From Escherichia coli (lineage in GTDB: Bacteria > Pseudomonadota > Gammaproteobacteria > Enterobacterales > Enterobacteriaceae): DNA of 64,000 nucleotides. The translations under genes were made by a program, and so were the position numbers. The notes under the pieces are model-generated. The model was given only the letters and a program-made list of their open reading frames with translations. It did not search any database and was not told where the DNA came from. Within the stretch, counting starts at the first letter, position 1. Every line of letters begins with the position of its first letter. The stretch lies in NCBI RefSeq assembly GCF_003790525.1, contig NZ_CP033635.1; one strand, 5' to 3'. Below, in pieces: positions 1 through 49,726 of the stretch.

Positions 1-1
1 C

Positions 2-174
2 GCACTGGATATTCTGATTGCGTGGCTACAGGACAATATCGACTGCGAATCGGGAATTATCTTTGACAACGATGAGGATAGAACGGATTCGGCAGCACTG
101 TTGCCCTGTATCGAACAGGCCAGGGAGGATATCCGTATCCTGCGCCAGTTGCAGCTTCTGCAACAGAACCGGTG
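2..174 (+). CDS. 3' end of an island gene (start lies outside the window); acidic C-terminal tail, function unknown
   Basis: Frame 2 is open from the window edge to TGA at 172..174 (…ALDILIAWLQDNIDCESGIIFDNDEDRTDSAALLPCIEQAREDIRILRQLQLLQQNR*); a hairpin terminator follows. Confidence 0.45.
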
Positions 175-203
175 AGTCTTACTCACCAGACTTCATTCCA
201 CTG

Positions 204-236
204 ACGCCAGCCTGAACAGGGCTGGCGTTTTCATTT
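204..236 (+). terminator. Rho-independent terminator-like hairpin after the upstream island gene
   Basis: 9-bp perfect stem acgccagcc / ggctggcgt with 7-nt loop, followed by a T-rich tail (ttttcattt). Confidence 0.55.
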
Positions 237-259
237 ATCTGCAAAAAGGAATATCGATT

Positions 260-1126
260 ATGTCTGAAATCACAGCCCCCCGTCCGGAAGTGGTCAACGG
301 GCATACGGACGTTATCGGCTCAACCAGCATCCGCCACATTCTGGCTGTACGAAAGAGTGCGCTGCTGCAAATCGACACACTTATCCGGCAACTGGCAGAA
401 ATCTCGGTGCTGACGGAAAGCATCGGAGGTAAAACTGCACTGGACTGGGCCATGAAACAGGATTTTCGCTGCGGTTGCTGGCTGATGGAAAAACCGGAAA
501 CCGCAATGAAAGCCATCACCCGCAACCTTGACCGCGAAATCTGGCGTGATCTGATGCAACGTTCAGGGATGCTGTCATTAATGGATGCACAAGCCCGTGA
601 TACATGGTACCGGTCACTGGAGTACGATAATTTTCCGGAAATCAGCGAAGCAAATATCCTGAGCACGTTTGAACAACTGCACCAGAACAAAGATGAAGTG
701 TTTGAGCGAGGGGTGCTCAACGTTTTCAGAGGACTGAGCTGGAATTACAAAACCAATTCACCCTGCAAATTTGGCAGTAAAATTATCGTCAACAATCTGG
801 TGAGGTGGGACCGGTGGGGGTTTCATCTTATCACCGGACAACAGGCCGATCGACTTGCCGATCTGGAAAGAATGCTGCACCTGTTCAGCGGCAAACCGAT
901 CCCCGACAACCGGGAAAACATCACCATTCATCTGGATGATCACATCCAGTCTGTTCAGGGTAAAGAGGACTATGAAGATGAGATGTTCAGCATCAGATAC
1001 TTTAAGAAGGGCTCCGCGCACATCACGTTCAGGAAACCAGAGCTGGTTGACAGGCTTAATGATATTATTGCCAGACACTACCCGGAAGCCCTGGCAAGCA
1101 CAGTGAACAAAAGCCGCAAGGCATAA
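260..1126 (+). CDS. Hypothetical 288-aa island protein, function unknown (possibly DUF4942-like; unverified)
   Basis: Uninterrupted 867-nt ORF with AAGGAA ribosome-binding site 7 nt upstream of ATG; soluble-looking protein with no transmembrane segment or recognisable catalytic motif; sits between the upstream terminator and the ParDE module. Confidence 0.75.
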   Translation: MSEITAPRPEVVNGHTDVIGSTSIRHILAVRKSALLQIDTLIRQLAEISVLTESIGGKTALDWAMKQDFRCGCWLMEKPETAMKAITRNLDREIWRDLMQRSGMLSLMDAQARDTWYRSLEYDNFPEISEANILSTFEQLHQNKDEVFERGVLNVFRGLSWNYKTNSPCKFGSKIIVNNLVRWDRWGFHLITGQQADRLADLERMLHLFSGKPIPDNRENITIHLDDHIQSVQGKEDYEDEMFSIRYFKKGSAHITFRKPELVDRLNDIIARHYPEALASTVNKSRKA

Positions 1127-1165
1127 AAGAGGTATTTTACAATTCGCGAATATTAACTATTATTA

Positions 1166-1181
1166 ATTGATAGTAATCAAT
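1166..1181. promoter_or_regulatory. Palindromic putative operator in the parDE promoter region
   Basis: ATTGAT-agta-ATCAAT inverted repeat about 17 bp upstream of the parD start, next to a TATTAAT -10-like hexamer (1161..1167). Confidence 0.35.
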
Positions 1182-1197
1182 CGGCGAGAAAATAACC

Positions 1198-1461
1198 ATG
1201 CCTACCAGTGTATCCCTCAGTCCTTACTTTGAAACGTTTATCCGCGAACAAATAGAAAGTGGTCGGTACAACAATACAAGTGAAGTCATTCGTGCCGGAC
1301 TTCGTGCTCTGGAAGAACGGGAACAGCAGATAAAGCTTGAATCACTCCAGAGCGCCGTGGCCGCAGGCATCAACAGCGGTGAAAGTAAAAGTGCTGAAGA
1401 GGTATTCGGGCGACTGACGCACAAATACAAAAAGATGGCAGAAGGTGAACAGCCAATATGA
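1198..1461 (+). CDS. parD: Type II antitoxin, ParD family (ribbon-helix-helix)
   Basis: 87-aa protein MPTSVSLSPYFETFIREQIESGRYNNTSEVIRAGLRALEEREQQI… typical of ParD antitoxins; stop overlaps the next start (ATGA). Confidence 0.85.
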   Translation: MPTSVSLSPYFETFIREQIESGRYNNTSEVIRAGLRALEEREQQIKLESLQSAVAAGINSGESKSAEEVFGRLTHKYKKMAEGEQPI

Positions 1462-1784
1462 AACTGACTGTTTCACCATTAGCAGAACACGATCTTGAAG
1501 CTATAGGTGACTGGATCGCTCAGGATAATCCTGTCCGTGCAATCAGTTTTACCGAAGAGCTTTACCAACAATGTCTGTTGATAGCCGAATCGCCAGTACT
1601 CTACAGAGAAAGACCCGAGTTAGGGGCTGGGATCAGAGGTTGTTCGTATGGTCGTTACCTTCTGCTGTTCAGGGTACTGGATACTGAAGTTCGTATCGAA
1701 CGTATCGTTCATGGTTCCCGGGATATCAACAGGGTACTTGCAGAGCCAGACGACAAACCATCAGATCATTTCTGGCAGCCATAA
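1458..1784 (+). CDS. parE: Type II toxin, ParE/RelE superfamily
   Basis: 108-aa protein; 4-bp overlap with parD; size, basic C-terminal half and gene order fit a ParE toxin. Confidence 0.8.
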   Translation: MKLTVSPLAEHDLEAIGDWIAQDNPVRAISFTEELYQQCLLIAESPVLYRERPELGAGIRGCSYGRYLLLFRVLDTEVRIERIVHGSRDINRVLAEPDDKPSDHFWQP

Positions 1785-2031
1785 ACAAAATCTGTGCGTT
1801 AACGCTCCCTAACACAGGTAGCCAGGTATTTTATAAATCTCTGTATTTTGTTGTCACTTCGATTCCGCGATTCAGCATATCGAACCAGACAAAATGATTA
1901 CAACAAACCACAAGAAAGAGGGATTATAGCGTCAAAAGAATTCGAATTGCACATGGGGGCCTCATTGGTGGCCTCAAAAAGAACAAGGATAAAACAGTCG
2001 ATACAAAACAATTGGTTATATAACCAGTTTC

Positions 2032-2050
2032 ATTCCGAGTCCGGGCACCA
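2032..2050 (+). other. tRNA-Phe 3'-terminal 19-nt remnant (att core direct repeat, attR side); not a functional tRNA
   Basis: ATTCCGAGTCCGGGCACCA matches the acceptor/T-arm 3' end of E. coli tRNA-Phe including CCA; the 57 nt upstream (1975..2031) do not resemble the tRNA body. Confidence 0.8.
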
Positions 2051-2062
2051 AATTCATATAAA

Positions 2063-2088
2063 CGGACCTCCACGGAGGTCCGTTTTTC
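2063..2088 (+). terminator. Native pheU rho-independent terminator retained downstream of the tRNA remnant
   Basis: Stem cggacctc / gaggtccg with 4-nt loop followed by TTTTT, 12 nt after the CCA. Confidence 0.65.
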
Positions 2089-2666
2089 GTTTCAGGACGC
2101 CACAATTTAAGCGTTCTCCCTAAAAATCATTTCTACCGAACTCAACCAGATTCTCCCCACAACACCAGCATTTTGCGGGTATATCCCAATTCGGGGAAAT
2201 GTGTTCCTGAGCGATAGCACTGACTGACGTGAAATGTCGTGCGGCCCCGTGATGCTGTTGAACGTCAAATGACGTCATCAGGAGCGTAACGCATCCATAA
2301 AGCACAACATCGGTCTGAACGCCGACTGATAAGATTTTCTGAATGAGAACAAAGAGAAATGTATCGGTCCACTTGCTCATGCAAAGACTAACAATCCATT
2401 AAAATAGTAAGCGCTCCGGACAACTTTCCATGGATTATTTTCTGCACATTTTTCTTTGGCAAAGATGATGAATTTTGATGGTAAGGAAAATTACTTCTGG
2501 TTCTCAGTAAAATCCTTTCGTAATACTATGTAATCAAGAAGTTTATGGCGGGTAAAAATAACGTCTTGCATTCACCAATAATATGTAAATAAACCCATCT
2601 ATAGATGGAAAAAATAGATTATGGCAATTATCATTGCATCATTCCCTTTTCGAATGAGTTTCTATT

Positions 2667-4205
2667 ATGCAACAACCTGTAGTTCGCGTTGGCGAATGGC
2701 TTGTTACTCCGTCCATAAACCAAATTAGCCGCAATGGGCGTCAACTTACCCTTGAGCCGAGATTAATCGATCTTCTGGTTTTCTTTGCTCAACACAGTGG
2801 CGAAGTACTTAGCAGGGATGAACTTATCGATAATGTCTGGAAGAGAAGTATTGTCACCAATCACGTTGTGACGCAGAGTATCTCAGAACTACGTAAGTCA
2901 TTAAAAGATAATGATGAAGATAGTCCTGTCTATATCGCTACTGTACCAAAGCGCGGCTATAAATTAATGGTGCCGGTTATCTGGTACAGCGAAGAAGAGG
3001 GAGAGGAAATAATGCTATCTTCGCCTCCCCCTATACCAGAGGCGGTTCCTGCCACAGATTCTCCCTCCCACAGTCTTAACATTCAAAACACCACAGCGCC
3101 ACCTGAACAATCCCCAGTTAAAAGCAAACGATTCACTACCTTTTGGGTATGGTTTTTTTTCCTGTTGTCGTTAGGTATCTGTGTCGCACTGGTAGCGTTT
3201 TCAAGTCTTGAAACACGTCTTCCTATGAGCAAATCGCGTATTTTGCTCAATCCACGCGATATTGACATTAATATGGTTAATAAGAGTTGTAACAGCTGGA
3301 GTTCCCCGTATCAGCTCTCTTACGCGATAGGCGTGGGTGATTTGGTGGCGACATCACTTAACACCTTCTCCACCTTTATGGTGCATGACAAAATCAACTA
3401 CAACATTGATGAACCGAGCAGTTCCGGTAAAACATTATCTATTGCGTTTGTTAATCAGCGCCAATACCGTGCTCAACAATGCTTTATGTCGGTAAAATTG
3501 GTAGACAATGCAGATGGTTCAACCATGCTGGATAAACGTTATGTCATCACTAACGGTAATCAGCTGGCGATTCAAAATGATTTACTCCAGAGTTTATCAA
3601 AAGCGTTAAACCAACCGTGGCCACAACGAATGCAGGAGACGCTCCAGCAAATTTTGCCGCATCGTGGTGCGTTATTAACTAATTTTTATCAGGCTCATGA
3701 TTATTTACTGCATGGCGATGATAAATCATTGAATCGTGCCAGTGAATTATTAGGTGAGATTGTTCAATCATCCCCAGAATTTACCTACGCGAGAGCAGAA
3801 AAAGCATTAGTTGATATCGTGCGCCATTCTCAACATCCTTTAGATGAAAAACAATTAGCAGCACTGAATACAGAAATAGATAACATTGTTACACTGCCGG
3901 AATTGAATAACCTGTCCATTATATATCAAATAAAAGCGGTCAGTGCTCTGGTAAAAGGTAAAACAGATGAGTCTTACCAGGCGATAAATACTGGCATTGA
4001 TCTTGAAATGTCCTGGCTAAATTATGTGTTGCTTGGCAAGGTTTATGAAATGAAGGGGATGAACCGGGAAGCAGCTGATGCATATCTCACCGCCTTTAAT
4101 TTACGCCCAGGGGCAAACACCCTTTACTGGATTGAAAATGGTATATTCCAGACTTCTGTTCCTTATGTTGTACCTTATCTCGACAAATTTCTCGCTTCAG
4201 AATAA
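2667..4205 (+). CDS. cadC: CadC, membrane-integrated ToxR-like transcriptional activator of cadBA
   Basis: 512-aa ORF with N-terminal winged-helix DNA-binding domain, one transmembrane segment and periplasmic sensor domain; upstream of cadBA. Confidence 0.93.
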   Translation: MQQPVVRVGEWLVTPSINQISRNGRQLTLEPRLIDLLVFFAQHSGEVLSRDELIDNVWKRSIVTNHVVTQSISELRKSLKDNDEDSPVYIATVPKRGYKLMVPVIWYSEEEGEEIMLSSPPPIPEAVPATDSPSHSLNIQNTTAPPEQSPVKSKRFTTFWVWFFFLLSLGICVALVAFSSLETRLPMSKSRILLNPRDIDINMVNKSCNSWSSPYQLSYAIGVGDLVATSLNTFSTFMVHDKINYNIDEPSSSGKTLSIAFVNQRQYRAQQCFMSVKLVDNADGSTMLDKRYVITNGNQLAIQNDLLQSLSKALNQPWPQRMQETLQQILPHRGALLTNFYQAHDYLLHGDDKSLNRASELLGEIVQSSPEFTYARAEKALVDIVRHSQHPLDEKQLAALNTEIDNIVTLPELNNLSIIYQIKAVSALVKGKTDESYQAINTGIDLEMSWLNYVLLGKVYEMKGMNREAADAYLTAFNLRPGANTLYWIENGIFQTSVPYVVPYLDKFLASE

Positions 4206-12018: not shown

Positions 12019-12245
12019 AATATGACTCCTATCAATATTGAACACTCTGGGGACGCAAAACTTATTAACCCCGATCGATGATTCTCATATAGGAGATATT
12101 CTTTTTTTTTGCTCAGTAAAGGGGATGACTTGGGACAAAAAAACGCTCTCTCTGACCATTCTTTGTGCATCCCCCTACCCTTCAGATACTCTCCTGCATC
12201 CCCCCGCGGAGAGCATGAAAAATATTGTGACTCTGTACTCTCCCA

Positions 12246-31342: not shown

Positions 31343-32434
31343 ATGCGTTTTCTGCGCCGACCAATATCGCTGCGCCAACGGCTGATATTGACCATCGGGG
31401 CCATTTTGTTGGTGTTTGAGCTGATCAGCGTCTTCTGGCTATGGCATGAAAGTACCGAGCAGATTCAGCTGTTTGAGCAGGCGCTACGCGACAATCGCAA
31501 CAACGATCGCCACATCATGCGTGAGATCCGCGAGGCGGTCGCCAGCCTGATTGTCCCCGGCGTCTTTATGGTCAGCCTGACGCTATTTATCTGCTATCAG
31601 GCGGTACGCCGCATCACCCGCCCGCTGGCGGAGCTGCAAAAAGAGCTGGAAGCGCGCACCGCCGACAACTTAACGCCCATTGCCATTCACAGCGCCACCC
31701 TCGAAATCGAAGCGGTGGTTTCAGCGTTAAACGATCTGGTCAGTCGCCTGACCAGCACGCTGGATAACGAAAGGTTGTTTACCGCTGACGTCGCGCACGA
31801 ACTGCGAACGCCACTGGCGGGGGTGCGTTTGCATCTGGAACTGCTGGCGAAAACGCATCACATTGATGTAGCACCGTTAGTGGCTCGACTTGATCAGATG
31901 ATGGAGAGTGTCTCCCAGCTGCTGCAACTGGCGCGTGCCGGACAGTCATTTTCTTCCGGGAATTATCAACATGTAAAACTGCTGGAAGATGTCATTCTCC
32001 CCTCGTATGACGAACTCAGTACCATGCTCGACCAGCGACAGCAAACCCTGCTATTGCCAGAGAGCGCCGCCGACATCACCGTTCAGGGTGATGCAACCCT
32101 GCTGCGGATGTTATTGCGAAACCTGGTAGAAAACGCCCATCGTTACAGCCCGCAAGGCAGCAACATTATGATTAAGCTGCAAGAAGATGGCGGAGCAGTC
32201 ATGGCCGTTGAAGATGAAGGACCGGGTATTGATGAGAGTAAATGCGGGGAGTTGAGTAAAGCGTTTGTACGTATGGACAGCCGTTATGGCGGGATTGGTC
32301 TGGGGTTAAGTATTGTCAGCCGCATTACACAGTTGCATCACGGGCAGTTTTTCCTGCAAAACCGGCAAGAGACTTCCGGCACGCGGGCCTGGGTACGGCT
32401 GAAGAAAGATCAGTACGTGGTAAACCAGATATAA
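31343..32434 (+). CDS. basS: Sensor histidine kinase BasS (PmrB)
   Basis: 363 aa from MRFLRRPISLRQRL…; transmembrane, HAMP, HisKA and HATPase domains. Confidence 0.93.
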   Translation: MRFLRRPISLRQRLILTIGAILLVFELISVFWLWHESTEQIQLFEQALRDNRNNDRHIMREIREAVASLIVPGVFMVSLTLFICYQAVRRITRPLAELQKELEARTADNLTPIAIHSATLEIEAVVSALNDLVSRLTSTLDNERLFTADVAHELRTPLAGVRLHLELLAKTHHIDVAPLVARLDQMMESVSQLLQLARAGQSFSSGNYQHVKLLEDVILPSYDELSTMLDQRQQTLLLPESAADITVQGDATLLRMLLRNLVENAHRYSPQGSNIMIKLQEDGGAVMAVEDEGPGIDESKCGELSKAFVRMDSRYGGIGLGLSIVSRITQLHHGQFFLQNRQETSGTRAWVRLKKDQYVVNQI

Positions 32435-32499
32435 AGAAAGCTGCTGACCACCAGCACGCTGAACACGGTAGTTAAACTTTCATAAACACGGTTTTTCAT
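32410..32499 (-). CDS. pmrR: 29-aa membrane peptide PmrR, convergent with and overlapping the basS 3' end
   Basis: Below the ORF-track cut-off; the reverse complement reads MKNRVYESLTTVFSVLVVSSFLYIWFTTY*; its last 25 nt overlap the basS coding end. Confidence 0.7.
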   Translation of the reverse strand: MKNRVYESLTTVFSVLVVSSFLYIWFTTY

Positions 32500-32569
32500 T
32501 GCACTCTCCTCCGTTAACCTGGAGGAGAGTATGCGCGTCAGAGATTAAGTGAACCTTAAGAGTTCAATT

Positions 32570-38218: not shown

Positions 38219-38237
38219 TTGTATTGTGATCGGTAAG

Positions 38238-38312
38238 CCGGATAAGGCGCTCGCGCCGCATCCGGCAACGATGCCGACTGCCTGATGCGACGCTGACCGC
38301 GTCTTATCAGGC
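38238..38312. repeat. BIME: two REP elements in inverted orientation
   Basis: gccggataaggcgctcgcgccgcatccggca and gcctgatgcgacgctgaccgcgtcttatcaggc. Confidence 0.8.
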
Positions 38313-38377
38313 TTCCCTCTCATCTGTATAAATTTCGAACTACACTTAACTGGCTTCTCTTAACTGAGGTCACCATC

Positions 38378-38821: not shown

Positions 38822-38849
38822 CCCGCCGGGAGGGCCGCCCTCCCGCACT

Positions 38850-38925
38850 GTCATCGAAATCTCGTTAACTCTTCATCCGTTAGTCACTTTTAGTTAACAA
38901 AATCGTCACAATAATCCGCCACGAT
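38850..38925 (+). promoter_or_regulatory. phnC promoter region with probable PhoB boxes
   Basis: Repeated TTAGTCAC / TCGTCAC heptamers with about 11-bp periodicity upstream of phnC; exact box limits not resolved. Confidence 0.35.
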
Positions 38926-38953
38926 GGAGCCACTTTTTTAGGGAGGCTGCATC

Positions 38954-39742
38954 ATGCAAACGATTATCCGTGTCGAGAAGCTCGCCAAAACCTTCAATCA
39001 GCATCAGGCGCTGCATGCGGTTGATCTGAACATTCATCACGGTGAAATGGTGGCTCTGCTTGGGCCGTCGGGTTCCGGCAAATCCACCCTTTTACGTCAC
39101 TTAAGCGGTTTGATTACCGGCGATAAATCTGCCGGTAGCCATATCGAGCTGCTGGGCCGCACAGTCCAGCGCGAAGGCCGCCTGGCCCGCGATATCCGCA
39201 AAAGCCGCGCCAACACCGGCTACATCTTCCAACAATTCAACCTGGTGAATCGCCTGAGCGTACTGGAGAACGTGCTGATTGGCGCGCTCGGCAGCACGCC
39301 GTTCTGGCGCACCTGTTTTAGCTGGTTCACCCGCGAGCAGAAACAGCGCGCGTTACAGGCGCTGACCCGCGTTGGCATGGTGCATTTTGCCCATCAGCGC
39401 GTTTCCACCCTCTCCGGCGGCCAGCAGCAGCGTGTGGCGATTGCCCGCGCGCTGATGCAGCAGGCGAAGGTGATTCTGGCCGATGAACCCATCGCCTCGC
39501 TGGACCCGGAATCGGCGCGCATCGTGATGGACACCCTGCGCGACATTAACCAGAACGACGGCATTACCGTGGTCGTCACGCTGCATCAGGTGGATTACGC
39601 CCTGCGCTACTGCGAACGCATCGTCGCCCTGCGCCAGGGGCACGTCTTCTACGACGGCAGCAGCCAACAGTTTGATAACGAACGTTTTGACCATCTCTAC
39701 CGCAGCATTAACCGCGTCGAAGAGAACGCGAAAGCTGCCTGA
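38954..39742 (+). CDS. phnC: Phosphonate ABC transporter ATP-binding protein
   Basis: 262 aa; Walker [10 protein letters not shown] and ABC signature LSGGQQQR. Confidence 0.95.
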
Positions 39743-39766: not shown

Positions 39767-40783
39767 ATGAACGCTAAGATAATTGCCTCGCTGGCCTTCA
39801 CCAGCATGTTCAGCCTCAGCACCCTGTTAAGCCCGGCGCACGCCGAAGAGCAGGAAAAGGCGCTGAATTTCGGCATTATTTCAACGGAATCACAGCAAAA
39901 CCTGAAACCGCAATGGACGCCGTTCTTACAGGATATGGAGAAGAAGCTGGGCGTAAAGGTCAACGCCTTCTTTGCCCCGGACTACGCGGGCATTATCCAG
40001 GGGATGCGCTTCAATAAAGTGGATATCGCCTGGTACGGCAACCTGTCGGCGATGGAAGCGGTGGATCGCGCCAACGGTCAGGTCTTCGCCCAGACAGTCG
40101 CGGCGGATGGATCGCCAGGTTACTGGAGCGTGTTGATCGTCAACAAAGACAGCCCGATCAACAACCTGAACGATCTGCTGGCGAAGCGTAAAGATCTCAC
40201 CTTTGGCAATGGCGATCCTAACTCCACCTCTGGCTTCCTCGTCCCCGGTTACTACGTCTTTGCCAAAAACAATATCTCCGCCAGCGACTTCAAGCGCACC
40301 GTCAACGCCGGGCATGAAACCAATGCGCTGGCCGTCGCCAACAAGCAAGTGGATGTGGCGACCAACAATACCGAAAACCTCGACAAGCTGAAAACCTCCG
40401 CACCAGAGAAGCTCAAAGAACTGAAGGTGATCTGGAAATCGCCGCTGATCCCAGGCGATCCGATCGTCTGGCGCAAAAATCTTTCCGAAACTACCAAAGA
40501 CAAGATCTACGACTTCTTTATGAATTACGGCAAGACGCCGGAAGAGAAAGCGGTGCTGGAACGCCTGGGCTGGGCCCCGTTCCGCGCCTCCAGCGACCTG
40601 CAACTGGTGCCGATTCGCCAGCTCGCACTGTTTAAAGAGATGCAGGGCGTGAAAAGCAATAAAGGGCTGAATGAGCAGGACAAGCTGGCGAAAACCACCG
40701 CGATTCAGGCGCAGCTGGATGACCTGGACCGCCTGAACAACGCGTTAAGCGCGATGAGTTCGGTAAGTAAAGCGGTGCAGTAA
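39767..40783 (+). CDS. phnD: Phosphonate ABC transporter periplasmic binding protein
   Basis: 338 aa with N-terminal signal peptide. Confidence 0.95.
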
Positions 40784-40847
40784 TGGTTTTCTCCCTCTCC
40801 CCGAAGGGGCGAGGGAACCGATCGAGCACACAATCACGGAGCCAAAC

Positions 40848-41627
40848 ATGCAAACCATCACCATCGCCCCACCCAAGCGCAGCTGGTTCTCGCTTCTGAG
40901 CTGGGCCATTGTTCTCGCCGTGTTGGTCGTCTCGTGGCAGGGCGCGGAAATGGCCCCGCTTACGCTGATCAAAGACGGCGGCAACATGGCGACGTTCGCT
41001 GCCGACTTCTTCCCGCCCGATTTCAGCCAGTGGCAGGATTACCTCACCGAAATGGCCGTCACGCTGCAAATCGCCGTCTGGGGCACCGCGCTGGCGGTGG
41101 TTCTCTCCATCCCCTTCGGTCTGATGAGCGCCGAAAACCTGGTGCCGTGGTGGGTTTACCAGCCCGTACGCCGCCTGATGGACGCCTGCCGCGCCATTAA
41201 CGAAATGGTCTTCGCCATGCTGTTCGTGGTCGCCGTCGGCCTTGGCCCGTTCGCTGGCGTGCTGGCGCTGTTTATCCACACCACCGGCGTGCTCTCCAAG
41301 CTGCTTTCCGAAGCGGTAGAAGCGATCGAACCCGGCCCGGTGGAGGGCATTCGCGCCACCGGTGCCAACAAGCTGGAAGAGATCCTCTACGGCGTGCTGC
41401 CACAGGTGATGCCGCTGCTGATCTCCTACTCCCTCTATCGTTTCGAATCCAACGTCCGCTCGGCGACCGTCGTCGGCATGGTCGGTGCAGGCGGGATCGG
41501 CGTCACCCTGTGGGAAGCGATTCGCGGTTTCCAGTTCCAGCAAACCTGCGCCCTGATGGTGCTGATTATCGTCACGGTCAGCCTGCTGGATTTCCTCTCT
41601 CAACGGTTGCGTAAGCACTTTATCTGA
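40848..41627 (+). CDS. phnE: Phosphonate ABC transporter permease (intact)
   Basis: 259-aa uninterrupted ORF; the K-12 allele carries a frameshifting 8-bp duplication. Confidence 0.92.
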
Positions 41628-41647
41628 TAAGCGAGGCATTGATATCT

Positions 41648-42373
41648 ATGCACTTGTCTACACATCCGACCAGCTACCCAACACGCTATCAGGAGATAGC
41701 CGCAAAACTTGAGCAGGAGCTTCGTCAACACTACCGCTGCGGCGACTATCTTCCCGCCGAGCAGCAACTGGCGGCGCGCTTTGAGGTGAACCGCCACACC
41801 CTGCGCCGCGCCATCGACCAACTGGTGGAAAAAGGTTGGGTACAGCGCCGTCAGGGCGTCGGCGTGCTGGTGCTGATGCGCCCGTTCGATTACCCGCTCA
41901 ACGCCCAGGCGCGTTTTAGCCAGAACCTGCTGGACCAAGGCAGCCATCCCACCAGCGAAAAATTGCTATCGGTGCTGCGCCCCGCCTCCGGTCACGTCGC
42001 TGACGCATTGGGGATTACCGAGGGCGAGAACGTTATCCACCTGCGCACCCTGCGTCGGGTCAACGGCGTCGCGCTCTGTTTAATCGACCACTACTTTGCG
42101 GACCTCGCCCTCTGGCCGACGCTGCAACGCTTCGACAGCGGCTCGCTGCACGATTTTCTGCGCGAGCAAACCGGAATTGCGCTGCGCCGCAGCCAGACGC
42201 GGATCAGCGCCCGCCGCGCCCAGGCCAAAGAGTGCCAGCGTCTTGAAATCCCGAATATGTCGCCGCTGCTGTGCGTGCGCACCCTTAACCACCGTGACGG
42301 TGAAAGCAGCCCGGCGGAGTACTCCGTCAGCCTGACGCGCGCCGACATGATTGAATTCACTATGGAGCACTGA
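41648..42373 (+). CDS. phnF: GntR-family repressor of the phn operon
   Basis: 241 aa from MHLSTHPTSY…; N-terminal GntR HTH, UTRA-type C-terminal domain. Confidence 0.93.
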   Translation: MHLSTHPTSYPTRYQEIAAKLEQELRQHYRCGDYLPAEQQLAARFEVNRHTLRRAIDQLVEKGWVQRRQGVGVLVLMRPFDYPLNAQARFSQNLLDQGSHPTSEKLLSVLRPASGHVADALGITEGENVIHLRTLRRVNGVALCLIDHYFADLALWPTLQRFDSGSLHDFLREQTGIALRRSQTRISARRAQAKECQRLEIPNMSPLLCVRTLNHRDGESSPAEYSVSLTRADMIEFTMEH

Positions 42374-42826
42374 ATGCACGCAGATACCGCGACCCGCCAG
42401 CACTGGATGTCCGTACTGGCGCACAGCCAACCGACTGAGCTGGCAGCCCGCCTGAACGCGCTGAACATCACCGCCGACTATGAAGTAATCCGCGCCGCTG
42501 AAACCGGCCTGGTGCAGATTCAGGCGCGGATGGGTGGCACCGGCGAACGCTTTTTTGCTGGCGACGCCACGCTCACCCGCGCCGCCGTACGCCTGACTGA
42601 CGGCACGCTCGGCTACAGCTGGGTGCTGGGGCGCGACAAACAGCACGCCGAACGCTGCGCGCTGATCGACGCGCTGATGCAGCAAACCCGCCATTTTCAA
42701 AACTTATCAGAAACTCTTATTGCCCCGCTGAACGCTGACCGTATGGCACGCATTGCCGCACGCCAGGCCGAAGTAAACGCCAGCCGGGTCGACTTCTTTA
42801 CGATGGTTCGCGGAGATAACGCATGA
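42374..42826 (+). CDS. phnG: C-P lyase core complex subunit
   Basis: 150 aa; conserved operon position. Confidence 0.93.
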
Positions 42827-43407
42827 CCCTGGAAACCGCTTTTATGCTTCCCGTGCAGGATGCCCAGCACAGTTTTCGTCGCCTGTTAAAGGCCATGAGC
42901 GAGCCGGGCGTGATTGTCGCCCTGCATCAGCTCAAACGCGGCTGGCAGCCGCTGAATATCGCCACCACCAGCGTGCTGCTGACGCTGGCCGATAACGACA
43001 CGCCGGTGTGGCTTTCTGCGCCATTAAGTAACGATATCGTCAGCCAGAGCCTGCGTTTTCATACCAACGCGCCGCTGGTCAATCAGCCGGAACTGGCGAC
43101 CTTCGCGGTAACGGATGAGGCGATTTCCAGCGAACAGCTTAACGCCCTTTCCAGCGGCACCGCTGTTGCGCCAGAAGCGGGCGCGACGCTGATTTTACAG
43201 GTCGTCAGCCTGAGCGGCGGGCGCATGCTGCGCCTTACTGGCGCGGGTATTGCCGAAGAACGAATGATCGCCCCGCAGCTGCCGGAGTGCATTCTGCACG
43301 AACTTACCGAGCGCCCGCACCCGTTCCCGCTCGGCATCGACCTGATCCTGACCTGCGGCGAGCGCCTGCTGGCTATCCCGCGAACCACTCATGTGGAGGT
43401 GTGCTGA
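42823..43407 (+). CDS. phnH: C-P lyase core complex subunit
   Basis: 194 aa; 4-bp overlap with phnG. Confidence 0.93.
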
Positions 43408-44471
43408 TGTACGTTGCCGTGAAAGGGGGCGAGAAGGCGATCGACGCCGCCCACGCCCTGCAAGAGAGCCGACGCCGGGGCAATACCGATTTGCCTGAAC
43501 TGAGCGTCGCCCAGATTGAACAGCAGCTTAATCTTGCAGTAGATCGCGTGATGACCGAAGGCGGCATTGCCGACCGCGAACTGGCGGCGCTGGCGCTGAA
43601 ACAGGCCAGCGGCGATAACGTCGAAGCGATTTTCCTGCTACGCGCCTACCGCACCACGCTGGCGAAGCTTGCGGTGAGCGAGCCGCTCGACACCACGGAG
43701 ATGCGTCTCGAACGGCGTATTTCAGCGGTTTATAAAGATATTCCCGGCGGCCAGCTGCTTGGCCCAACCTACGACTACACCCATCGCCTGCTCGATTTCA
43801 CCCTGCTGGCAAACGGCGAAGCGCCGACGCTGACCACAGCCGACAGCGAACAACAGCCGTCGCCGCACGTTTTCAGCCTGCTGGCGCGTCAGGGGCTGGC
43901 GAAGTTTGAAGAAGATAGCGGCGCACAGCCGGACGACATCACCCGCACGCCGCCGGTTTACCCCTGCTCACGCTCCTCCCGCCTGCAACAATTAATGCGC
44001 GGCGACGAAGGCTATTTGCTGGCGCTGGCCTACTCCACCCAGCGTGGTTACGGACGCAATCATCCGTTCGCAGGCGAAATCCGCAGCGGCTATATCGACG
44101 TGTCGATTGTGCCGGAAGAGCTGGGATTTGCGGTGAACGTCGGCGAACTGCTGATGACCGAATGTGAAATGGTCAACGGTTTTATCGACCCGCCGGATGA
44201 GCCGCCGCACTTCACGCGCGGCTACGGGCTGGTGTTCGGCATGAGCGAGCGCAAAGCGATGGCGATGGCGCTGGTTGACCGCGCTCTACAAGCCCCGGAG
44301 TACGGCGAGCACGCGACAGGCCCGGCGCAGGATGAAGAGTTCGTGCTGGCGCATGCCGACAACGTCGAAGCCGCAGGCTTTGTCTCGCACCTTAAACTCC
44401 CGCACTACGTCGATTTCCAGGCCGAACTGGAGCTACTCAAACGTCTGCAACAGGAGCGGAACCATGGCTAA
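43407..44471 (+). CDS. phnI: C-P lyase subunit PhnI (ribose 1-methylphosphonate 5-triphosphate synthase component)
   Basis: 354 aa from [13 protein letters not shown]…; start overlaps the phnH stop (TGATG). Confidence 0.93.
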   Translation: MYVAVKGGEKAIDAAHALQESRRRGNTDLPELSVAQIEQQLNLAVDRVMTEGGIADRELAALALKQASGDNVEAIFLLRAYRTTLAKLAVSEPLDTTEMRLERRISAVYKDIPGGQLLGPTYDYTHRLLDFTLLANGEAPTLTTADSEQQPSPHVFSLLARQGLAKFEEDSGAQPDDITRTPPVYPCSRSSRLQQLMRGDEGYLLALAYSTQRGYGRNHPFAGEIRSGYIDVSIVPEELGFAVNVGELLMTECEMVNGFIDPPDEPPHFTRGYGLVFGMSERKAMAMALVDRALQAPEYGEHATGPAQDEEFVLAHADNVEAAGFVSHLKLPHYVDFQAELELLKRLQQERNHG

Positions 44472-45309
44472 TCTGAGCGGCTACAACTTTGCCTACCTCG
44501 ACGAGCAGACCAAACGCATGATCCGCCGCGCCATCTTAAAAGCGGTGGCGATCCCCGGTTATCAGGTGCCGTTTGGCGGGCGCGAGATGCCGATGCCGTA
44601 CGGCTGGGGAACTGGTGGTATCCAGCTTACCGCCAGCGTGATTGGCGAAAGCGACGTGTTGAAGGTGATTGACCAGGGTGCGGATGACACCACCAACGCG
44701 GTGTCGATCCGTAACTTCTTTAAGCGCGTGACCGGGGTAAACACCACTGAACGTACGGACGATGCGACGCTTATCCAGACGCGCCACCGCATCCCCGAAA
44801 CGCCGCTGACCGAAGATCAGATCATTATTTTCCAGGTGCCGATCCCCGAACCGCTGCGCTTTATCGAGCCGCGCGAAACGGAGACCCGCACCATGCACGC
44901 GCTGGAGGAGTACGGCGTGATGCAGGTGAAACTGTATGAAGATATCGCCCGCTTCGGTCATATCGCCACCACCTACGCCTATCCGGTGAAGGTAAACGGG
45001 CGCTACGTAATGGACCCGTCGCCGATCCCGAAATTCGATAACCCAAAAATGGACATGATGCCCGCCCTGCAACTGTTCGGCGCGGGGCGCGAGAAGCGCA
45101 TCTATGCGGTGCCGCCGTTTACCCGCGTGGAAAGCCTCGATTTCGACGATCACCCGTTCACCGTTCAGCAGTGGAATGAGCCATGCGCCATCTGCGGATC
45201 GACCCACAGCTATCTCGACGAAGTGGTACTGGATGACGCCGGAAACCGCATGTTTGTCTGCTCCGATACCAATTATTGCCGCCAACAGAGCGAGGCAAAA
45301 AACCAATGA
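44464..45309 (+). CDS. phnJ: C-P lyase catalytic subunit PhnJ (radical SAM-like, Cys cluster)
   Basis: 281 aa from MANLSGYNFAYLDEQTKRMIRRAILKAVAIPGYQ…; C-terminal CxxCGS…C…C motif. Confidence 0.93.
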   Translation: MANLSGYNFAYLDEQTKRMIRRAILKAVAIPGYQVPFGGREMPMPYGWGTGGIQLTASVIGESDVLKVIDQGADDTTNAVSIRNFFKRVTGVNTTERTDDATLIQTRHRIPETPLTEDQIIIFQVPIPEPLRFIEPRETETRTMHALEEYGVMQVKLYEDIARFGHIATTYAYPVKVNGRYVMDPSPIPKFDNPKMDMMPALQLFGAGREKRIYAVPPFTRVESLDFDDHPFTVQQWNEPCAICGSTHSYLDEVVLDDAGNRMFVCSDTNYCRQQSEAKNQ

Positions 45310-46064
45310 ATCAACCGTTACTTTCGGTCAATAACCTGACCCACCTTTACGCGCCGGGCAAAGGCTTTAGCGATGTCTCTTTTGATTTATGGCCGGGGGA
45401 AGTGCTGGGCATCGTCGGGGAATCCGGCTCCGGGAAGACCACGCTGCTGAAGTCGATCTCCGCGCGCCTGACGCCGCAGCAGGGGGAGATTCGCTATGAA
45501 AACCGCTCCCTCTATGGCATGAGCGAAGCCGACCGCCGCCGTTTACTGCGCACCGAATGGGGCGTGGTACATCAGCATCCGCTCGACGGCCTGCGCCGCC
45601 AGGTATCGGCAGGCGGCAATATCGGCGAGCGGCTGATGGCGACCGGGGCGCGTCATTACGGCGACATCCGCGCCACCGCGCAGAAGTGGCTGGAAGAGGT
45701 GGAGATTCCCGCTAACCGGATCGACGACCTGCCGACCACCTTTTCCGGCGGCATGCAGCAGCGTTTGCAGATTGCCCGCAACCTGGTGACGCATCCGAAG
45801 CTGGTGTTTATGGACGAGCCAACCGGCGGGCTGGATGTGTCGGTGCAGGCGCGCCTGCTCGACCTGCTGCGCGGCCTGGTGGTGGAGCTGAACCTGGCGG
45901 TGGTGATTGTCACCCACGATTTAGGCGTCGCCCGCCTGCTGGCGGACCGTTTGCTGGTGATGAAGCAGGGGCAGGTGGTGGAGAGTGGGTTAACCGACCG
46001 CGTGCTCGACGACCCGCATCATCCGTATACCCAGCTGCTGGTGTCATCGGTTTTGCAGAATTGA
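45306..46064 (+). CDS. phnK: C-P lyase-associated ABC-type ATPase
   Basis: 252 aa; Walker [10 protein letters not shown]. Confidence 0.93.
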
Positions 46065-46070
46065 GCCGGT

Positions 46071-46154
46071 GCCGGATGCGGCGTAAACGCCTTATCTGGC
46101 CTACAAATGCGCTCCCCGTAGGTCGGATAAGACGCGTCAGCGTCGCATCCGACA
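46071..46154. repeat. BIME (two REP elements) inside the phn operon, between phnK and phnL
   Basis: gccggatgcggcgtaaacgccttatctggcctaca and gtaggtcggataagacgcgtcagcgtcgcatccgac. Confidence 0.8.
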
Positions 46155-46174
46155 CCCGAACCACGAGGCGAAAA

Positions 46175-46855
46175 ATGATTAACGTACAAAACGTCAGTAA
46201 AACCTTCATCCTGCATCAGCAAAACGGCGTACGCCTGCCCGTCTTACAACGTGCCTCGCTCACCGTCAACGCAGGCGAATGCGTGGTGCTCCACGGTCAC
46301 TCCGGCAGCGGCAAATCAACCCTGCTGCGCTCGCTGTACGCCAACTATCTACCCGACGAAGGTCAAATCCAGATCAAACACGGTGACGAGTGGGTAGACC
46401 TGGTCACCGCGCCAGCGCGCAAAGTGGTGGAAATCCGCAAAACCACCGTCGGCTGGGTGAGCCAGTTTCTGCGCGTCATCCCGCGTATCTCAGCACTGGA
46501 AGTGGTGATGCAGCCGCTGCTCGATACCGGCGTTCCGCGTGAAGCCTGCGCCGCTAAAGCCGCGCGTCTTCTCACCCGCCTGAACGTGCCGGAACGCCTG
46601 TGGCACCTGGCACCATCGACATTTTCCGGTGGCGAACAGCAGCGCGTCAACATCGCCCGCGGCTTTATCGTCGACTACCCCATTCTGCTGCTTGACGAAC
46701 CTACCGCCTCGCTGGACGCCAAAAACAGCGCCGCGGTGGTGGAACTGATTCGCGAAGCCAAAACCCGTGGCGCAGCCATCGTAGGCATCTTCCATGACGA
46801 AGCTGTACGTAATGACGTCGCCGACCGCCTGCACCCAATGGGAGCCTCTTCATGA
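46175..46855 (+). CDS. phnL: C-P lyase-associated ABC-type ATPase
   Basis: 226 aa from [11 protein letters not shown]…; Walker [10 protein letters not shown]. Confidence 0.93.
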
Positions 46856-47988
46856 TTATCAATAACGTTAAGCTGGTGCTGGAAAACGAGGTGGTGCACG
46901 GTTCGCTGGAGGTGCAGGATGGCGAAATCCGCGCCTTTGCCGAAAGCCAGAGCCGCCTGCCAGAAGCGATGGATGGCGAAGGCGGCTGGCTGCTGCCGGG
47001 GCTGATTGAGCTGCATACCGATAATCTGGATAAATTCTTCACCCCGCGCCCGAAGGTTGACTGGCCCGCCCACTCGGCGATGAGTAGCCACGACGCGCTG
47101 ATGGTGGCGAGCGGCATCACCACCGTGCTGGACGCGGTGGCGATTGGCGACGTGCGCGACGGCGGCGATCGGCTGGAGAATCTGGAGAAGATGATCAACG
47201 CCATCGAAGAGACGCAGAAACGCGGCGTCAACCGCGCCGAGCACCGTCTGCATCTGCGCTGCGAACTGCCGCATCACACCACGCTGCCGCTGTTTGAAAA
47301 ACTGGTGCAGCGCGAACCGGTGACGCTGGTGTCGCTGATGGATCACTCGCCGGGCCAGCGCCAGTTCGCCAATCGCGAGAAGTATCGCGAATATTATCAG
47401 GGCAAATATTCCCTCACCGATGCGCAGATGCAGCAGTACGAAGAGGAACAGCTGGCGCTTGCCGCACGCTGGTCACAGCCTAATCGCGAAACTATCGCCG
47501 CAATGTGCCGCGCGCGACACATTGCCCTCGCCAGCCACGATGACGCCACGCACGCCCACGTTGCCGAATCCCACCAGCTTGGCAGCGTGATCGCCGAATT
47601 TCCCACCACGTTCGAAGCGGCAGAAGCCTCGCGCAAGCATGGCATGAACGTGCTGATGGGCGCGCCGAATATCGTGCGCGGCGGTTCGCACTCCGGCAAC
47701 GTGGCGGCCAGTGAACTGGCGCAGCTTGGCCTGCTGGATATCCTCTCTTCCGACTACTACCCCGCCAGCCTGCTCGATGCGGCATTTCGCGTCGCCGATG
47801 ACGAGAGCAACCGCTTTACGCTGCCGCAGGCGGTGAAGCTGGTGACTAAAAATCCGGCGCAGGCGCTTAATCTTCAGGATCGCGGGGTGATTGGCGAGGG
47901 CAAACGCGCCGACCTGGTGCTGGCGCATCGCAAGGGCAACCACATTCATATCGACCACGTCTGGCGTCAGGGTAAAAGGGTGTTCTGA
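46852..47988 (+). CDS. phnM: Amidohydrolase-family RPnTP diphosphatase
   Basis: 378 aa; metal-dependent hydrolase fold (HTD motif). Confidence 0.93.
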
Positions 47989-48545
47989 TGACGGGAAAAC
48001 TGATTTGGTTAATGGGGGCCTCTGGCTCCGGAAAAGACAGTCTGTTGACGGAACTCCGCCAGCGGGAACAAACTCAGCTACTGGTAGCGCATCGCTACAT
48101 CACGCGCGCCGCCAGCGCCGGAAGTGAAAACCATATCGCCCTGAGCGAGCAGGAGTTTTTTACCCGCGCGGGGCAGAACCTTCTGGCCTTAAGCTGGCAC
48201 GCTAACGGTCTGTATTATGGCGTCGGCGTCGAGATTGACCTCTGGCTGCACGCTGGATTTGACGTGGTGGTCAACGGCTCACGCGCCCATCTGCCGCAGG
48301 CGCGGGCGCGCTATCAATCGGCGCTGCTGCCCGTTTGTTTACAGGTTTCGCCAGAGATCCTGCGCCAGCGCCTGGAAAACCGTGGTCGTGAAAATGCCAG
48401 TGAAATTAACGCCCGGCTGGCGCGCGCTGCCCGCTATACTCCTCAGGATTGTCTTACGCTCAATAATGACGGCAGCCTGCGCCAGTCGGTCGACAAGCTG
48501 CTGACGCTGATTCATCAGAAGGAGAAACACCATGCCTGCTTGTGA
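47988..48545 (+). CDS. phnN: Ribose 1,5-bisphosphate phosphokinase
   Basis: 185 aa; P-loop GASGSGKDS. Confidence 0.93.
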
Positions 48546-48966
48546 GCTTCGCCCGGCTACGCAGTACGACACCGACGCAGTTTACGCGCTGATTTGTGAG
48601 CTAAAACAGGCGGAGTTTGACCACCACGCGTTTCGCGTGGGGTTTAACGCCAATCTGCGCGATCCGAACATGCGCTACCATCTGGCGCTGCTGGATGGCG
48701 AAGTTGTCGGCATGATCGGCCTGCATTTGCAGTTTCATCTGCATCATGTCAACTGGATCGGCGAAATTCAGGAACTGGTGGTGATGCCGCAGGCGCGCGG
48801 TCTGAATGTCGGCAGCAAATTACTGGCATGGGCAGAAGAAGAAGCCCGCCAGGCCGGGGCCGAAATGACTGAGCTTTCCACCAACGTGAAGCGCCACGAC
48901 GCGCACCGTTTCTATCTGCGCGAAGGCTACGAGCAGAGCCACTTCCGCTTCACCAAGGCGCTGTAA
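48532..48966 (+). CDS. phnO: Aminoalkylphosphonate N-acetyltransferase (GNAT)
   Basis: 144 aa; 14-bp overlap with phnN. Confidence 0.93.
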
Positions 48967-48967
48967 C

Positions 48968-49726
48968 ATGAGCCTGACCCTCACGCTCACCGGCACCGGC
49001 GGCGCACAGGGCGTTCCGGCATGGGGCTGCGAGTGCGCGGCCTGCGCCAGAGCACGACGCTCGCCGCAGTATCGCCGCCAGCCATGCAGCGGCGTAGTAA
49101 AGTTTAACGACGCAATCACCCTGATCGACGCCGGGCTGCACGATCTCGCCGATCGCTGGTCGCCAGGATCGTTCCAGCAGTTTTTGCTGACGCATTATCA
49201 TATGGATCACGTCCAGGGGCTGTTTCCGCTGCGCTGGGGCGTGGGCGATCAGATCCCGGTCTACGGCCCGCCGGATGAACAGGGCTGCGACGATCTGTTT
49301 AAACATCCGGGCCTGCTTGATTTCAGCCACACGATGGAACCGTTTGTGGTGTTTGATTTACAAGGGTTACAGGTCACGCCCCTGCCGCTCAACCACTCAA
49401 AACTGACCTTCGGTTATCTGCTGGAAACGGCACACAGCCGGGTGGCGTGGCTGTCTGACACCGCTGGCTTGCCGGAAAAAACGCTGAAATTTTTACGCAA
49501 TAATCAGCCGCAGGTAATGGTGATTGATTGCAGCCACCCGCCGCGCGAGGATGCACCGCGTAATCACTGTGATTTAAATACCGTGCTTGCGCTGAATCAG
49601 GTTATCCGCTCGCCACGGGTGATTCTGACCCATATCAACCACCAGTTTGATGCGTGGCTGATGGAAAACGCACTGCCGTCGGGGTTTGAGGCGGGGTTTG
49701 ATGGGATGGAGATTGGGGTGGCGTGA
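48968..49726 (+). CDS. phnP: Metallo-beta-lactamase-fold phosphodiesterase
   Basis: 252 aa; HxHxDH motif ([10 protein letters not shown]). Confidence 0.93.

Follow-up and report, generated by a model that had tools for sequence, protein, structure and literature searches.

The reading frame at positions 40848..41627 (+ strand) of the window, a stretch of 64,000 nucleotides from contig NZ_CP033635.1 (assembly GCF_003790525.1) of Escherichia coli, is in all likelihood the wild-type, in-frame allele of phnE, located in the complete C-P lyase operon of a non-K-12 E. coli close to strain SMS-3-5. The phnE gene encodes the permease subunit of the PhnCDE phosphonate ABC transporter. Its frame in the open reading frame list begins with ATG, is preceded by the ribosome-binding site GGAG at 8 nt 5' of this start, and extends over 259 codons (780 nt) without any interruption. 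The product scores 311.3 bits (E 4.5e-93) against TIGR01097, the NCBIfam equivalog model for the phosphonate ABC transporter permease protein PhnE, which exceeds the curated cut-off of 216.7 bits, and it covers positions 8-251 of the 252 profile positions. Membership of this family is also indicated by the context, as the ATPase gene phnC and the binding-protein gene phnD adjoin phnE inside the phn C-P lyase operon. Over the 780 nt there is 100% identity to phnE as annotated in E. coli SMS-3-5 (NC_010498.1, WP_001193496.1), and related isolates such as CM2 likewise show no difference in this gene. The open reading frame list, the TIGR01097 match and the identity with SMS-3-5 phnE all agree with the original prediction of an uninterrupted 259-aa permease gene. 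A phnE gene with 90-100% identity is present in 5,394 of 5,426 complete E. coli genomes.

The frameshift in K-12 phnE and its reversion have been textbook matter since 1991. PhnCDE of K-12 is cryptic owing to an 8-bp insertion in phnE, and a K-12 revertant without 5'-GCTGGCGT at ORF positions 407-414 has a working, transporting PhnCDE (Stasi et al. 2019, PMC6469041). As far as earlier work is recounted in that paper (Makino 1991 and Iqbal 2004, both cited in PMC6469041), slippage readily removes one unit and so gives phnE+ revertants of K-12; the tract itself is described, after Iqbal 2004, as a site of reversible phase variation or slippage. In our pairwise alignment, phnE of the window and of MG1655 share both the ATG and the TGA and run colinearly between them, except for one gap of 8 columns. 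The gap falls at the tract located at 41253..41268 (+), corresponding to ORF positions 406-421. Here the window contains two units, GCTGGCGT-GCTGGCGC, the in-frame ON state, where MG1655 contains GCTGGCGT GCTGGCGT GCTGGCGC. The extra GCTGGCGT unit of MG1655 shifts the frame after FAGVLA (around residue 141), and the new frame ends some 48 codons further on; its phnE (phnE_1/phnE_2, b4104) is recorded in RefSeq as a 788-nt pseudogene flagged 'frameshifted'. In the window, two GCTGGCGT-type units begin at ORF position 406 within a continuous frame of 259 codons opened by the same ATG. The K-12 duplication, which had been predicted to be absent, is therefore lacking when aligned, with one unit fewer in the window. 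The same ATG and the lacking unit also exclude the case in which the duplication is retained and the frame is rescued by an unusual start. Tandem Repeats Finder (positions 40700-41800, minimum score 30) returned no repeat because two 8-bp units are too short, and the repeat was therefore defined by the pairwise alignment.

Outside the repeat, the nucleotide identity between the window and cryptic MG1655 phnE is about 97.7%. Besides the 8-bp unit there are 18 nucleotide substitutions, 17 of which are silent relative to the K-12 backbone, the exception being V21I. When one unit is removed in silico from MG1655 phnE, a 259-aa protein results, and the window protein differs from it only by V21I. 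E. coli B and the Phn+ revertants of K-12 carry a functional phnE that agrees with the window in its start, its length (780 nt, 259 aa) and its two-unit tract. With a single-residue difference from the functional K-12 revertant protein, the phnE product is expected to transport phosphonates, and phosphate, in vivo.

The genes surrounding phnE are all intact. Upstream are phnC (ATP-binding subunit, 262 aa; 38954..39742, + strand), with 98.2% nucleotide identity and 3 amino-acid differences relative to K-12, and phnD (periplasmic phosphonate-binding protein, 338 aa; 39767..40783, + strand), as established from the open reading frame list and the K-12 comparison. Downstream, at 41648..49726 (+ strand), a per-gene check found the regulator gene phnF and the C-P lyase pathway genes phnG, H, I, J, K, L, M, N, O and P. 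Each of the 14 genes from phnC to phnP has an ATG start and a single terminal stop, and the length of each is that of its K-12 counterpart except for phnE. The gene order is also that of K-12, with yjdM and yjdN flanking on one side and yjdP and rpiB on the other, such that the MG1655 context yjdM-yjdN-phnC...phnP-yjdP-rpiB is common to both. In the near-identical SMS-3-5 annotation the phn genes carry no pseudogene flags. Nucleotide identity to K-12 is 93.9-98.2% per phn gene, with 0-8 amino-acid changes against 13-46 nucleotide changes. Judged from these comparisons, the excess of silent change indicates the pattern of purifying selection on a presumably working operon.

The phnD-phnE spacer (40784..40847, + strand), analyzed by sequence comparison and folding, comprises 64 nt with a GC-rich hairpin and the GGAG site. 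The corresponding MG1655 spacer is 105 nt long, of REP type, and unrelated to it. This difference is an intergenic repeat-element polymorphism inside the operon. The hairpin CTCCCTCTCCCCGAAGGGGCGAGGGA at 40791-40816 has a fold of -23.5 kcal/mol (z -2.2) and is the sole copy in the window. An Rfam scan found no RNA family in phnE or in the adjoining spacers. Elsewhere in the window, two RNAs scored above the gathering threshold, namely naRNA4, a REP-derived nucleoid-associated RNA, at 38236-38313 (+) between yjdM and yjdN, and the sRNA STnc630 at 32403-32568 (-).

The source of this DNA is a wild-type E. coli of an SMS-3-5-like lineage and not K-12. Positions 2032-64000 are 99.99% identical to SMS-3-5 (NC_010498.1), with 4 substitutions and 2 single-base indels. 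Downstream of pheU, the differences are at 12101, 17726, 24183, 39178 and 55091; one nucleotide is deleted between yjdJ and ghoS, and fumB, adiA, phnC and alsC have one substitution each. The substitution at 39178 is synonymous and lies at the third position of a phnC glycine codon. Eleven complete genomes, obtained from humans, chicken, pangolin and river water, have a 12-kb phn region with 100% identity to that of the window, and the operon of SMS-3-5 differs from these 11 by one synonymous phnC base.

Two other explanations of the intact frame were weighed. The first concerns lineage. On this view the DNA would come from a K-12 derivative that regained phnE+ when slipped-strand events removed one 8-bp unit; such revertants are easily obtained, are selected on phosphonate or low phosphate, and have the same two-unit structure at the repeat (PMC6469041). 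However, phnE of the window has the 18 further differences from MG1655 besides the 8 bp, the other phn genes are just 93.9-98.2% identical to K-12, the phnD-phnE spacer differs in sequence, and nearly the whole window follows SMS-3-5 instead. The window also departs from the K-12 revertants in a few promoter substitutions. Such an origin is thus extremely improbable, and we rejected it on the divergence across phnE and the operon. The original prediction that this is not a K-12 derivative holds because of this sequence divergence and the SMS-3-5 identity; what cannot be kept is the missing 8 bp as its proof, because K-12 revertants have two units and some non-K-12 isolates have three. The second explanation concerns the coding strand. 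A 335-aa open reading frame does exist opposite phnE (40632..41639, - strand) and covers all of it, and if this were the real gene, the phnE frame would be a product of chance or a mis-call. Yet it is the + strand frame that matches the PhnE equivalog model with the E-value given above and that has phnD before it and phnF after it, as in the conserved order of the operon, whereas the antisense frame is a shadow frame of the kind usual for GC-rich genes, unannotated in all records examined. We give virtually no credence to an antisense gene and rejected it, as the family match and the synteny favour the + strand. A wild-type phnE in an SMS-3-5-like strain remains our preferred reading, and no feature of the sequence speaks against it.

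At the start of the window, ~2,031 bases have no counterpart in SMS-3-5 at the same site. They encode a DUF4942 protein (260-1126), a ParD antitoxin (1198-1461) followed by a ParE/RelE toxin (1458-1784), and also a DUF957-type protein; directly next to them, at about 2032-2050, are the final ~19 nt of tRNA-Phe (pheU). A complete tRNA was looked for in positions 1-4000 and was not found. Positions 1-2050 resemble the right end of a genomic island that inserted into pheU. This island end is found with a 100% match in strains XDL and CM2 and not in SMS-3-5; CM2, which is one of the 11 operon-identical genomes, matches positions 1-2400 at 100%.

To place the allele within the species, all complete E. 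coli genomes were queried with an 84-nt MG1655 sequence made up of the three units with 30 nt of flank on each side. Three units were found in 994 records with 100% identity over the 84 nt and, with a few mismatches, in 15 records with 95-99% identity. Another 3,857 records matched at 80-95% identity and have two units, all sampled rows spanning 76 nt. The three-unit frameshifted allele is therefore present in ~1,009 of ~5,396 complete E. coli records (~19%). The two-unit allele accounts for at least 71% of the records (at least 3,857) and probably for ~81%, as ~530 phnE-bearing genomes were unmatched by the 84-nt query and their repeat number was unscored. A second query built on the flanks of the window reproduces this split. 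Two units are what most E. coli carry, and the surprise at an intact phnE that was implied in the original prediction is misplaced. The intact gene found here is ordinary and already known.

Among 13 evenly spaced three-unit rows, about half were laboratory or K-12 strains and about half came from human, duck or vegetable sources with genomes of 4.7-5.1 Mb. In 2013C-4991 (human stool, 5.37 Mb) and FORC 064 (cucumber), phnE is annotated as a 788-nt frameshifted pseudogene, and both differ from MG1655 by 1-2 bases over 2.5 kb of the phn region. The three-unit allele usually ascribed to K-12 is a natural allele on a K-12-like phn haplotype. It could be imagined that the 8-bp tract is a natural phase-variation (contingency) locus across E. 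coli, its OFF state being upheld in wild populations. In that event the window allele would represent the ON state, and the OFF state would correspond to ~19% of the records, roughly half of them apparently non-laboratory. We consider this unlikely. An artificial three-unit query on the window flanks gave no full-length match of at least 99% among the matches listed, and the three records in that identity band are presumably partial matches; the full-length three-unit matches listed all have the K-12-type flank, at 98.8%. There is thus no evidence for recurrent switching on the haplotype of the window, no three-unit allele being found on it among the matches listed. The evidence leans against recurrent natural switching and fits a single inherited three-unit allele, because the wild three-unit alleles examined are 1-2 SNPs from K-12 over 2.5 kb and, among the matches listed, none is on the window haplotype.

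An intact frame could still belong to a silent or impaired system, if substitutions in the Pho box weakened activation by PhoB or if V21I or other changes in Phn proteins harmed their function. The phnC promoter region (38845..38953, + strand), as aligned to K-12, is homologous to the PhoB-bound promoter of K-12, of which a fragment for PhoB EMSA is given in PMC6194859. It has 5 substitutions relative to the common K-12-type sequence. Two of these are in the proximal Pho-box-like 22-mer, which reads CCGTTAGTCACTTTTAGTTAAC in the window and CTGTTAGTCACTTTTAATTAAC in K-12, and one of the two is at position 2 of the first half-site. Two further changes relative to K-12 are in a second, upstream box-like sequence, CTGTCATCGAAATCTCGTTAAC. 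Moreover, the phnC promoter of K-12 is already weak, with the lowest PhoB affinity, the highest off-rate and the latest onset among the promoters tested (PMC4447250). Against impairment, 393 complete-genome records of E. coli have retained this promoter haplotype (at least 99% identity), which makes it a normal minority variant. The upstream box-like sequence is also there, V21I is a conservative V to I change in a transmembrane N-terminal segment, and the 14 of 14 open phn genes with few amino-acid changes point to purifying selection on a working operon. We regard a silent or impaired system as quite improbable. Neither the variant box nor the weakness of the K-12 promoter gives grounds to doubt the predicted Pho control. 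A further reading, possible but unlikely, is that the variant Pho box of this lineage retunes the timing of operon onset.

In the mechanism that we propose, the presence of two 8-bp units where K-12 has three would allow the frame to run through to the 259-aa permease. PhoB would activate the phnC promoter under phosphate starvation, resulting in phosphonate uptake and use, and the strain would need no prior slippage mutation to use phosphonates. From its sequence, the strain is expected to be Pho-inducible and not cryptic. The two-unit tract would remain a substrate for slipped-strand events, so that gain of a unit could turn the system off in a minority of cells. The strain had also been described as constitutively competent under Pho induction, which contradicts itself; 'constitutively' is wrong because activation by PhoB is expected, phnF is intact and the repeat is a reversible slippage site.

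For annotation, the strain is predicted to be Phn+ without a lag, importing phosphonates and, via PhnCDE, phosphate, and it can be grouped with SMS-3-5-like isolates, not with laboratory K-12. The count of alleles is a small addition to existing knowledge, as it shows the cryptic allele to occur outside K-12 too. The three-unit allele is no marker of K-12, and its presence or absence alone is unfit for lineage assignment, because this form occurs in about a fifth of the complete E. coli records, including wild isolates.
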